A stretch of DNA of 64,000 nt from a virus (Duplodnaviria; Caudoviricetes): positions 1-64,000 of the IMG/VR virus record IMGVR_UViG_3300020577_002429; one strand, 5' to 3'. A program made the position numbers and the translations under genes. Of the stretch, positions 1-8,030 are shown piece by piece. Numbering within the stretch: position 1 is the first letter of the stretch; each line of letters opens with the position of its first letter. The notes under the pieces are model-generated. The model was given only the letters and a program-made list of their open reading frames with translations. It was not told the origin of the DNA and ran no database searches.

Positions 1-291
1 TTAAGGAAGCAAGTTCAGTCTGAGGAGACTAAAAAGAAAAGAGCACTAAAACAAACCGGTCCCGGTAATCATAGATATGGAAAAACCGGAAACCTATCTG
101 CTAGTTTTGGTAAACCTAATGTCAATAGAATTAAAGTTGATTGTTTCACAAAAGATTTAGTATTTGTTAAGTCGTTTGAATGTATTTTAGAAGCTAGTAG
201 GTATTTAAAAGTTAGACCTACGAATATATCAGCTCATCTAAACGGTAAACAAAAGACAGTAAAAGGTCATATTTTTAAGAAAAGAGGATAA
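1..291 (+). CDS. 3' part of a homing-endonuclease-like protein (NUMOD3/NUMOD1-type DNA-binding C-terminus), truncated by window edge
   Basis: Frame 1 is open from base 1 to TAA at 289-291: ...QSEETKKKR...GNHRYGK...VKSFECILEASRYLKVRPTNISAHLNGKQKTVKGHIFK. Same architecture as the C-terminus of the GIY-YIG at 26422. Confidence 0.7.
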   Translation, partial: LRKQVQSEETKKKRALKQTGPGNHRYGKTGNLSASFGKPNVNRIKVDCFTKDLVFVKSFECILEASRYLKVRPTNISAHLNGKQKTVKGHIFKKRG

Positions 292-5573: not shown

Positions 5574-5722
5574 ACTATACAGCATTATACACATCAGAAG
5601 GACCTAAAGTAACACTTAGAGTGGCTATAAAGCTATGGACACTGGGATTTAATAAAACGTGGTCTACAGGAGCTAATGCTAGGTATTATGATAGAATAGG
5701 GTTTTATAAGGAAATCAAATGA
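5570..5722 (+). CDS. KLxKL-motif micro-protein, 50 aa (not in ORF track)
   Basis: MNYTALYTSEGPKVTLRVAIKLWTLG...; ATGA overlaps. Confidence 0.75.
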   Translation: MNYTALYTSEGPKVTLRVAIKLWTLGFNKTWSTGANARYYDRIGFYKEIK

Positions 5723-5889
5723 AATATTATAGCTTTAGCCATCAGAAAGAAGCCACAATTTCTCCTAGGTTATTAATTAAACTAAAAATATTGCTTGGAT
5801 CTGTGCATAATACAGAGTACGTCGTAATATCGGATAAAAGCTACCGTGTTGCTATACATAATCAAGAAGAGGTTATTAGGTTATATTGA
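5719..5889 (+). CDS. KLxKL-motif micro-protein, 56 aa, last array member (not in ORF track)
   Basis: MKYYSFSHQKEATISPRLLIKLKILLG... Confidence 0.75.
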   Translation: MKYYSFSHQKEATISPRLLIKLKILLGSVHNTEYVVISDKSYRVAIHNQEEVIRLY

Positions 5890-5948
5890 GTTAAGGTACA
5901 GGTGACACTGTCCAGACCGTCCCACTCTCATTCCCACCTATACCCCCA

Positions 5949-6118
5949 TGCACATTTCATGCCACTCACTCTGGCATACTTTTTGCAAGCAGGATATTAT
6001 CGTATGCAATTATAATGCCAGCTATTGCCTTGCATTATTCATGCCACTGTATGACACAGTATATACTGTGCAATGCATATGCCAACAATGTCTTGTCCCA
6101 TTTGGCATAATTGTTGCA
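5949..6118. promoter_or_regulatory. cluster of six sigma54-type -24/-12 motifs (TGGCAT-N5-[T/A/G]TGCA) in both orientations
   Basis: + strand copies at 5972-5987 and 6103-6118; - strand copies at 5949-5964, 6005-6020, 6031-6046 and 6069-6084; exact GG-N10-GC spacing in all six. Confidence 0.65.
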
Positions 6119-6477
6119 ATGGCTATAGTTTTTATCTATATGCTGTCATGTTGATATAGTCTTAAGCGTATTTTTGCTACTATTACTACACATGATCTTA
6201 TAACCTATCTTGTTATATCTCTCTGTCATGTCCGAATTTAGGCAAAGCTATAGACTACCTTGTATGATACACGGTTAGTCAATTCAGCTCATCACTTAGT
6301 TACACAACGTTAGATTGTGCTTTGTTTGATGATCTATGGTCTCGAATAGAATCAGCAGTTAAGTCAGGACTCTTTTGATTGTCGAGTCATCTGTCAGCGA
6401 CTTTCATCACGCTGCCTTGTCCTTTATAACATCACTGTATATAAAGCTTTAATCCCTAGTGTCTATTCACTCTTACA

Positions 6478-6488
6478 AATATATGTTA
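6478..6488 (-). promoter_or_regulatory. putative late promoter motif TAACATATATT (isolated copy pointing left)
   Basis: Identical to the motif upstream of - strand virion genes. Confidence 0.55.
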
Positions 6489-6504
6489 ATTTATAGCTGT
6501 CTAA

Positions 6505-6533
6505 CTTATACCATATTGTATAATATTTGTCAA
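6505..6533 (-). promoter_or_regulatory. leftward sigma70-type promoter
   Basis: - strand TTGACA-17 bp-TATAAG with TG extension. Confidence 0.5.
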
Positions 6534-6644
6534 GTGGGCTAAGTATTTAATAACCTTAATGAATAGCCGGTTTTCTAAAAATATAGCCTTAAGTTATACA
6601 CTATCTCATTATGAGAATTACTGTAATAACAACTAGTTACGAGT

Positions 6645-6660
6645 TGGCACAAGCTATGCA
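6645..6660 (+). promoter_or_regulatory. sigma54-type promoter upstream of first early gene
   Basis: TGGCAC-AAGCT-ATGCA, 27 nt upstream of ATG 6688, with a GAGG RBS in between. Confidence 0.55.
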
Positions 6661-6687
6661 GTTATATAAATTCAACGAGGCGGTAAA

Positions 6688-6936
6688 ATGAGATTTATAG
6701 TAAGCGAGACATATCAAGAGATTACACCAGAGTCAGCACAATATGGTGATTTTAGCGATACTGGCTTTGTGTTTCAAGATGAGACGTACAGCCTGCGTGA
6801 ACTGATTAATTTTATAAAGCGTAACGGGTATACTAGAGAGAGTAAGGGAACAAACTGGCTGACGGTAGGACCTTGGACTGAATGCTATAGGACAGGGACT
6901 GAACGCTCTACTAACTTACATATAACTTTAAAATAG
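6688..6936 (+). CDS. hypothetical early protein
   Basis: 82 aa ORF with RBS. Confidence 0.75.
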   Translation: MRFIVSETYQEITPESAQYGDFSDTGFVFQDETYSLRELINFIKRNGYTRESKGTNWLTVGPWTECYRTGTERSTNLHITLK

Positions 6937-6946
6937 GAGTATCATA

Positions 6947-7291
6947 ATGAAACAATTTATCATCATCAGTTTAGACAGACCTAAAAATCCAGCAAGTGAC
7001 CTAGACAAGCAAGCATTAATACAATTGTTTGATGCTAAGCCTGTACTTGGATCTTATAAAGGCCAGACAGAGACATCTTTCTTAGTTGACTACAGTTATT
7101 TTGATAGTATGATTCAAATAGCTATGAAATACGGACAAGAGTCTATTCTAGTCAAGGATAGTACCGCTATCTATCTTGTCTATCCTGAAACACTAGCTTA
7201 TAGCAAGTTAGGCAATGAGTTCAGAATGTCTAATGTTATGCCAGACAGTGACGCTTGGACCTTAATTGATGAGACGTATTTTTATTTATAG
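6947..7291 (+). CDS. probable S-adenosylmethionine lyase (T3 SAMase-like)
   Basis: G-S-Y-K-G-x-x-E-x-S and A-x-x-Y-G-Q-E-S-I-L motifs, size 114 aa, position at the start of the early region. Confidence 0.55.
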   Translation: MKQFIIISLDRPKNPASDLDKQALIQLFDAKPVLGSYKGQTETSFLVDYSYFDSMIQIAMKYGQESILVKDSTAIYLVYPETLAYSKLGNEFRMSNVMPDSDAWTLIDETYFYL

Positions 7292-7596: not shown

Positions 7597-7718
7597 CATT
7601 TTTTGTTATACACTGTAAAAAGCTTAGACAATAATTAAGCTTTAAAATGAATGTAATAGTATTAAATTGGCCCCGATACTGCATTAAAGAACATCAACAA
7701 CTAACGAAAGGCAAAAAA

Positions 7719-8030
7719 ATGAAACTAACATACAGCATCTGTCAAGACTTAATTAAGAAAGGTAGAGGCAAAACTAAGAAACTGGACAATAATACTTATT
7801 TGATGCAAGATGATAGTGAAACACCTAGATTCTTTGTTCAATTGCATGGCAACACAATTTTAGTCATTTATCCGGATAAAGTACAACATTTTGATGCTGG
7901 TTGGCAGACAGTGACAACTAAGGACCGGCTTAATAAGTTTGGTCACTTAAGAATTTTTCAAAAGAAAGGCATCTGGTATACGACAGACAAAGTTGAGTTT
8001 ACTAGTGGTGTATCGGTGTACTATGCTTAA
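7719..8030 (+). CDS. conserved-type phage hypothetical protein (LHGN...GWQTVTTKDRLN)
   Basis: Start reassigned to ATG 7719 after AAAGG; motif is typical of a widespread early phage family of unknown function. Confidence 0.7.
   Translation: MKLTYSICQDLIKKGRGKTKKLDNNTYLMQDDSETPRFFVQLHGNTILVIYPDKVQHFDAGWQTVTTKDRLNKFGHLRIFQKKGIWYTTDKVEFTSGVSVYYA

Follow-up and report, generated by a model that had tools for sequence, protein, structure and literature searches.

A non-coding region of an uncultured phage genome contains six sigma-54-type -24/-12 boxes within 170 bp, in both orientations, with a seventh box shortly before the next gene. Clusters of the same kind are widespread among uncultured phage contigs, where the boxes follow common spacing rules and many clusters are flanked by a G-rich block of fixed polarity. 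Sigma-54 stands alone among bacterial sigma factors in binding DNA stably without firing, and phage research has paid it little attention. Its holoenzyme forms a tight closed complex at -24/-12 boxes, and no transcription starts until an enhancer-binding ATPase acts. We tentatively propose that the six boxes, together with the one at position 6645, form a cis-acting docking array, or activator-gated start region, for the sigma-54 polymerase of the host. No single simple reading covers all the contexts in which such arrays occur, and several rival explanations are weighed below.

A box cluster in a gene-free gap

The analysed window covers positions 1-64,000 of a 98% complete IMG/VR virus record of 81,942 bp (here denoted G000). 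The + strand genes begin at about 70.4 kb, continue over the record ends and reach 34 kb, and the - strand carries the late genes, including those for the major capsid protein, the portal and the large terminase (67443-68963). The two ends of the record (window positions 1-120 and record positions 81823-81942) consist of near-identical pieces, about 60 nt long, of one repeated gene, so that the contig stops at an assembly break and no genome terminus is known. A location of the cluster near the termini, as had been suggested, is thus without support from the contig. The translation of the repeated gene at both ends resembles a homing-endonuclease motif.

The whole element lies inside a gene-free gap of 798 bp (5890-6687), between two blocks of small + strand genes. 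The sole open reading frame of at least 40 codons in this gap is a spurious one that runs across the boxes, and the gap is the longest non-coding stretch within the 12 kb examined in detail. Upstream, an array of tiny + strand genes extends to 5889; downstream, a gene cassette starts at 6688. The second of the first two genes after the gap (6688-7291, + strand) encodes a SAM lyase (6947-7291; Pfam PF23780, E = 4e-10), an early gene of the anti-restriction type, which makes it plausible to call the gene at 6688, as the original prediction did, the first early gene. Further along, 7647-8030 encodes a Kyanoviridae Gp96-like domain protein, and the same Gp96 family recurs beside the clusters of other phages. 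Searches with the region for DNA similarity among GenBank phages gave no match, and no Rfam family was detected in the whole window.

No other 800-bp window of the + strand block is as rich in pyrimidines as the gap (5850-6650), whose purine fraction is 0.444 versus 0.560 +/- 0.027. The corresponding gap of the close relative described below is similar (0.43). Given that the sense strands of this genome are purine-rich, this composition hints that an unannotated non-coding RNA may run leftward through the gap. A leftward TTGAAA-17-TAAAAT site is found at 6777-6749. Strong promoter-like sequences of one family, TTGACA-17-TGnTAnnnT, precede middle or replication genes between 12625 and 29170 on the + strand, and none of them occurs in the gap.

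A pattern scan with TGGCAT-N5-DTGCA confirmed six sites spanning 5949-6118. Four of these point leftward, namely 5949-5964 (TGGCATGAAATGTGCA), 6005-6020 (TGGCATTATAATTGCA), 6031-6046 (TGGCATGAATAATGCA) and 6069-6084 (TGGCATATGCATTGCA), all on the - strand; the two rightward boxes, on the + strand, are 5972-5987 (TGGCATACTTTTTGCA), which stands back-to-back with the box at 5949 at 23 bp start to start, and 6103-6118 (TGGCATAATTGTTGCA). Four of the six are perfect TGGCAT-N5-TTGCA, and the remaining two end in GTGCA and ATGCA. As to genome-wide frequency, the 81,942-bp record has no match beyond these six, and none at all to the reversed control pattern. The expectation from shuffled sequences is 0.09 matches per window, and a count of six was reached in 0 of 100 shuffles. 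All six boxes keep the asymmetry between a TGGCA and a TGCA element, and in this they are unlike the site of a symmetric dimer.

The seventh site, TGGCAC-N5-ATGCA (TGGCACAAGCTATGCA; 6645-6660, + strand), proved equally real. It points the same way as the first post-gap gene, stands at promoter distance, 28 bp before the ATG at 6688, and is the sole box positioned like an ordinary promoter: the four leftward boxes are not so placed, and those at 5972 and 6103 are 570-700 bp from the next gene. The palindrome that had been noticed among the boxes, ACAGTATATACTGT at 6056-6069, does exist and extends to a perfect palindrome of 16 bp (CACAGTATATACTGTG; 6055-6070), which spans about -10 to +5 of the box at 6069; it is not kept in the close relative. 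A reading of the palindrome as a LexA box was rejected, given its wrong spacing (CTGT-N5-ACAG) and its lack of conservation. The back-to-back pair 5949/5972 can fold (5959-5987) into a 6-bp hairpin with the T-run of the second box after it, so that back-to-back pairs might double as weak terminators.

On its left side, the cluster is bordered by a block that is C-rich on the + strand and G-rich on the - strand (5900-5948), with GGGGG beginning 1 nt past the box at 5949. It corresponds to the polar G-block seen beside clusters in other phages.

Conservation, spread and the probable reader of the boxes

The sole close relative of this phage in IMG/VR, G011 (82,265 bp), has a DNA polymerase 62% identical to that of G000. 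By gene order, the syntenic counterpart of the gap lies at 42.0-43.3 kb in G011, and four of the five genome-wide TGGYAY-N5-DTGCA matches fall there, within 270 bp, the control giving 0. The cluster is hence retained in the relative at the syntenic gap. The surrounding non-coding DNA has diverged and aligns poorly with the window, and box positions and orientations have changed; a box homologous to the one at 5949 is recognizable in G011, and the C-rich/G-rich block beside it is conserved in a similar arrangement. Persistence of the cluster despite altered positions and orientations points to selection on the presence of boxes and, at the level of sequence comparison, indicates that the boxes in the gap are under selection. 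Three of the four G011 boxes read TGGTAT. Before its own first post-gap gene, G011 has cGGCAC-N5-TTGCA, which overlaps a clear sigma-70 promoter, TTGACA-17-TACACT. Clusters are present in more distant relatives as well (portal 42-52% and large terminase about 37% identical).

Far beyond these relatives, a scan of IMG/VR for face-to-face pairs returned 15 contigs, most of them with clusters of 4-10 boxes, at a G+C content of 35-61%; the 15 include two phage records 320-350 kb in length. When back-to-back and tandem pairs were sought, each scan yielded at least 120 matches. Pooled, the three scans comprise at least 228 viral loci with at least 242 distinct clusters and at least 1013 boxes, the number of boxes per cluster ranging from 2 to 19 among the matches listed. 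In bacterial and archaeal genomes totalling 596 Gb, the face-to-face pattern with a gap of 5-35 bp was found in only 17 stretches, all of them isolated pairs, and 11 of the 17 are copies of a single palindromic repeat in two actinobacterial MAGs. With the same pattern, viral matches are thus mostly clusters and bacterial ones pairs only, any per-base enrichment being an estimate. The actinobacterial repeat is a dispersed 42-bp palindrome made of two face-to-face TGGCATGCGTYTTGCA units (L039-L040, L044-L048, L050, L046, L051), with at least nine copies in one Acidimicrobiales MAG chromosome; Actinobacteria are a phylum usually said to be without sigma-54.

The viral loci are not all independent, since about half of the loci with three or more boxes, among the matches listed, belong to a single broad phage group, with portals of the SU10 type and likewise with no cultured relative found. 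In this largest group, the module occupies a divergent gap and heads an operon that encodes a DUF5681 protein (possibly the small terminase), an endolysin, the large terminase and the portal. Among the matches listed, 296 boxes of this group face away from the packaging operon versus 124 toward it; in 45 of 51 loci the gene next to the cluster is divergent, with its start at a distance of 70-770 bp, and 70% of the boxes face it. Boxes that face a divergent gene at promoter distance suggest that at least some of them are promoters and not pure decoys.

Spacing within the arrays is far from free. In the viral clusters listed, face-to-face pairs prefer start-to-start distances of 18-21 bp, back-to-back pairs 22-26, 32-36 and 42 bp, and tandem pairs 25-29, 35-41 and 50-51 bp, with very few tandem pairs at 30-34 bp; each of the spacings in the window (23, 33, 26, 38 and 34 bp) falls within a preferred class. 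The first two tandem classes correspond to about 2.5 and 3.5 helical turns, which would put neighbouring boxes on opposite faces of the helix and, we infer, leave room for bulky complexes side by side.

Two further features recur next to the boxes. A G4+-N1-3-G4+ motif, read outward from the cluster, was found at 63 of 137 clusters versus 7 with the opposite polarity, among the clusters listed; its usual form is CCGGGGGAGGGGGTTGAC, 10-11 bp past the last box (L065, L071, L087, L098 and many others). Perfect DnaA boxes occur within 200 bp of clusters at 0.54 per kb versus 0.010 per kb in the remainder of these loci, an approximately 50-fold enrichment, with 0 for the reversed control, in or beside the clusters of 20 loci, about a tenth of those listed. 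Tandem perfect DnaA boxes (TTATCCACA) are seen at L246:470-500, L128:860-885 and 18 other viral loci. The genome of G000 has three matches to the DnaA-box consensus TTATNCACA, two of which, at 5585-5593 (+) and 5802-5810 (-), fall within the last tiny genes, at 150-370 bp to the left of the cluster; the gap itself holds no DnaA-box array.

The identity of the boxes as sigma-54 sites is well supported by comparison with G011 and with unrelated phage groups, and by positions that the search pattern leaves free. The six boxes and the seventh all carry GG and GC doublets exactly 10 bp apart, as in TGGCAC-N5-TTGC. In 94 pooled phage boxes, the pattern-free positions show T at -27 in 51%, a purine at -20 in 91%, T at -15 in 91% and A/T at -10 in 83%, in agreement with the wider sigma-54 consensus (T/C at -27, G/A at -20, T at -15, A/T at -10). 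The six local boxes are weaker on this wider consensus, with T at -21 in all and G at -20 in two of the six.

The original prediction had also allowed for a phage protein of similar specificity, an option that the comparison disfavours. No BLAST-detectable protein is common to the phage groups near clusters in the sampled regions, and no sigma-54 DNA-binding domain was detected in 12 phage records. No PF00158 protein above the cut-off was detected in this phage, and of 11 other cluster-bearing phages a single one has a match, an 834-aa protein with two AAA modules. In the phages examined we found no convincing gene for an enhancer-binding ATPase or for sigma-54. The AAA+ gene at 78993-80102 was considered as an activator and discarded, as it is of the MoxR/AAA_5 type and paired with DUF2201. 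The same boxes at G+C contents of 35-61%, in groups that share no protein, suggest a reader supplied by the host. Together with the fit to the consensus and the lack of a phage-borne sigma-54 or activator, this makes host sigma-54 the most economical candidate; judged from sequence comparison, sigma-54 or its holoenzyme probably reads the boxes, and a phage protein is unlikely to do so.

As for the host, cultured relatives of the large terminase, portal and DNA polymerase are distant only, the nearest being a Silvanigrella phage (27-28%), Flavobacterium phage immuto (polymerase, 45%) and Pelagibacter phages (22-25%). Shine-Dalgarno sites precede 56% of genes versus 9% in the control, which, along with promoters of the TTGACA-17-TGnTAnnnT type, argues against a Bacteroidota host.

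A proposed docking array and its alternatives

According to our tentative proposal, the boxes and the one-sided G-rich block would together form a conserved control module of non-coding DNA, placed where the tiny-gene array (to 5889) gives way to the SAM lyase cassette (from 6688). Sigma-54 RNA polymerase holoenzyme of the host would dock at the six boxes and at the box at 6645, and the module would act in cis by loading several polymerases abreast, with neighbours on opposite faces of the helix. The box at 6645 could be an ordinary promoter of the downstream cassette and, perhaps along with those at 5972 and 6103, would provide rightward starts into it, gated by an enhancer-binding ATPase that the host may supply. 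The four leftward boxes might serve as gated antisense starts into the tiny-gene array, or else the complexes bound there might close that unit. Both the importance of binding in cis and the direction of any transcription are what we infer from the arrangement of the boxes. Promoter use fits the largest group, where the neighbouring gene is divergent, 70-770 bp off and faced by most boxes. Several observations count against the proposal. Of the six boxes, four are directed against the genes upstream, and the many face-to-face pairs across phages that stand only 2-5 bp apart, unusable by two polymerases at once, make little sense as promoters. The local boxes have T at -21 and G at -20 in just two of six, and G011 tolerates TGGTAT. 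Neither an enhancer-binding ATPase nor a conserved activator site was found, the latter in the comparison of G000 with G011, and an anti-restriction cassette waiting on an activator would be odd biology.

It is conceivable, and in our view doubtful, that the arrays capture silent closed sigma-54 complexes as a plug for some use other than transcription, for example, a replication start, a packaging or entry mark, or a shutdown of host sigma-54 responses. The serious rivals are two. One is a non-productive trap, in which the array holds sigma-54 or its holoenzyme either as a decoy, draining the small host sigma-54 pool after phage DNA replication, or as a roadblock or insulator after the tiny-gene array. 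We consider this unlikely. It would account for the use of both orientations at very high density (one box per 23-38 bp here, about 23 bp at the densest elsewhere), for face-to-face pairs that are useless as promoters, for the failure to find an activator gene or site and, if tandem spacing indeed reflects bulky complexes side by side, for the avoidance of 30-34 bp; moreover, the sole terminator-like feature past the upstream array is the weak hairpin formed by two of the boxes themselves. A single genome copy, however, offers six or seven sites, so that a decoy could not work early in infection; a face-to-face pair would hold one polymerase instead of two and make a wasteful sponge; and the clusters of the largest group, in a divergent gap with no transcription to block, have 70% of their boxes facing a gene. 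The other serious rival, which we place after the trap, is a replication origin or priming hub that gathers host factors (polymerase and, in some phages, DnaA), with RNA across the G-block priming DNA synthesis through a stable RNA-DNA hybrid, as at ColE1 or mitochondrial CSB II. A common form of the G-block, GGGGGAGGGGG, resembles what we take to be the CSB II G-run. The enrichment of DnaA boxes near clusters, the two consensus words to the left of this one and the fixed polarity of the G-block all speak for an origin, as do the four local boxes that point into the G-rich strand, the length of the gap and the fact that the phage encodes its own PolA-type polymerase and DnaB-type helicase. Against this, DnaA boxes accompany only about a tenth of the loci listed, the gap has no distinct AT-rich unwinding element (27-30% G+C at the lowest versus 35% on average), an initiator gene beside the module is absent, and the boxes of the largest group mostly point away from the G-block (227 versus 107 among the matches listed).

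That the array is a packaging or DNA-entry signal, be it a pac- or cos-type site, a physical genome end or a T5-like injection stop mediated by a host protein, appears improbable. An array heads the DUF5681 operon 0.7-2.8 kb before the large terminase gene in 88 of the 177 cluster loci listed, and in relatives of this phage it precedes the terminase by 3.4-5 kb; in G000 itself, about 19 kb separate the cluster from the terminase genes, the candidate small terminase does not belong to DUF5681, and the motif, far from being specific to the phage's own small terminase, is invariant across terminase families and equals the sigma-54 consensus. Contigs end within 300 bp of clusters in 23 of 120 cases versus 10.4 expected, among the matches listed, and a physical genome end at the cluster was considered for this reason and rejected: the ends are at non-homologous positions, some inside tandem units, as expected of assembly breaks, and the ends of our own record are such a break. 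Contig ends at clusters probably reflect repeats, G-runs or strain variation that break assemblies; those of L088, L095, L107, L114, L174, L215, L229 and others are 8-54 bp from clusters or inside them. The order of tiny genes followed by a long untranslated region with host-factor sites does recall the T5 injection stop signal, iss, with its DnaA boxes (10.1101/866236), but the gap holds no ordered set of DnaA boxes, which in that type lie within a long terminal repeat. Among the least likely readings is another DNA-binding protein, of phage or host, that prefers two TKGCA half-sites 11 bp apart, which we regard as very improbable. The boxes can be described as direct TKGCA repeats one helical turn apart, and some response regulators do use direct half-site repeats at that distance. 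Shared ancestry, with about half of the cluster loci listed coming from the group with SU10-type portals, would explain part of the spread, and the TGGTAT variant of G011 would be tolerated. Such a reader is hard to reconcile with the detailed match of the free positions to sigma-54, with boxes in 320-350-kb phages and across the full G+C range, and with the lack both of a protein family common to this phage and the other groups near clusters and of a sigma-54-like DNA-binding domain in the 12 records. Least credible of all is a reading of the boxes as standard sigma-70 promoters whose -35 element is of the TTGGCA type. Readings of this kind can be made at 6102 (+; TTGGCA-16-TATAGT, over the box at 6103), 6085 (-; TTGGCA-16-TATACT, over the box at 6069) and 6644 (+; TTGGCA-17-TAAATT), and the seventh box of G011 overlaps a clear sigma-70 promoter. 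Nevertheless, promoter-like matches in the region number 9 versus 6.6 +/- 2.9 in shuffles and so are not above expectation, pooled boxes have no -10 hexamer at the right distance, the invariant TGCA would fall unexplained in the spacer, and the phage's own clear promoters are of the TTGACA-17-TGnTAnnnT type and located elsewhere.

If the arrays do dock sigma-54, a large set of environmental phages would either tie part of their programme to the enhancer-binding activators of the host, and thereby to its nitrogen, stress or motility state, or employ silent polymerase complexes as a structural tool. Either option would alter the interpretation of early control regions in uncultured phages, and the plug reading would give sigma-54 a new use and add a new class of cis elements. 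For in vitro tests the 170-bp fragment offers a simple object, since sigma-54 holoenzyme and constitutive activators are standard reagents.

Comparison with known systems

Sites read by the small terminase at cosB or pac, such as the R sites of lambda and pacL/pacR of SPP1, resemble the arrays in the largest cluster-bearing group in that several 16-bp sites in both orientations adjoin packaging genes. They differ in the constancy of our motif across terminase families and, in this phage, in its distance from the terminase genes. The arrays may also be likened, by analogy and in idea, to datA of Escherichia coli, which titrates DnaA, and to 6S RNA, which acts on sigma-70 holoenzyme: a dense array or a mimic holds a host machine without productive output. 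Both of these systems are cellular, target factors other than sigma-54, and have measured effects.

The iss of T5-like phages is a long untranslated region after small early genes with eight ordered DnaA boxes (Davison, 10.1101/866236), and the injection-stop model is itself a proposal (10.1101/866236). Like iss, the element described here is an array of host-protein sites, and some sigma-54 clusters of other phages also hold DnaA boxes; unlike in iss, sigma-54 boxes take the place of DnaA boxes, and neither a terminal repeat nor two-step entry is known for the present phage. Pseudomonas phage YuA, according to 10.1101/2023.10.13.562163 (citing Ceyssens et al. 2008), has a single sigma-54-like promoter with a mapped start site and so, as reported there, is a phage that uses a host promoter of the sigma-54 type, in likeness to our proposal. 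The present phage differs in having an array; the YuA genome, when scanned, contained neither a match to the box pattern nor a cluster. Our literature search found no work on clusters of sigma-54 boxes in phages, the other pertinent items being the single YuA promoter and a weak prediction of a sigma-54-like protein in Pectobacterium phage Q19. The present scans add the spacing classes, the polar G-block, the link to DnaA boxes and the terminase context of sigma-54 box arrays.

The closest parallel is provided by the bacterial sigma-54 (RpoN) -24/-12 promoters, such as glnAp2, nifH and pspA, with the consensus YTGGCACGR-N3-TTGCW. Unlike these, the array packs six boxes into 170 bp on both strands, most of them not before a gene, and comes with neither an activator gene nor an upstream activator site that we could find here; close pairs are rare and never clustered in bacteria, as judged from the one scan with the face-to-face pattern and a gap of 5-35 bp. 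Like them, it shows the exact spacing of GG and GC elements, agreement with the wider consensus at the free positions and, in the seventh box, a site at promoter distance from a gene.
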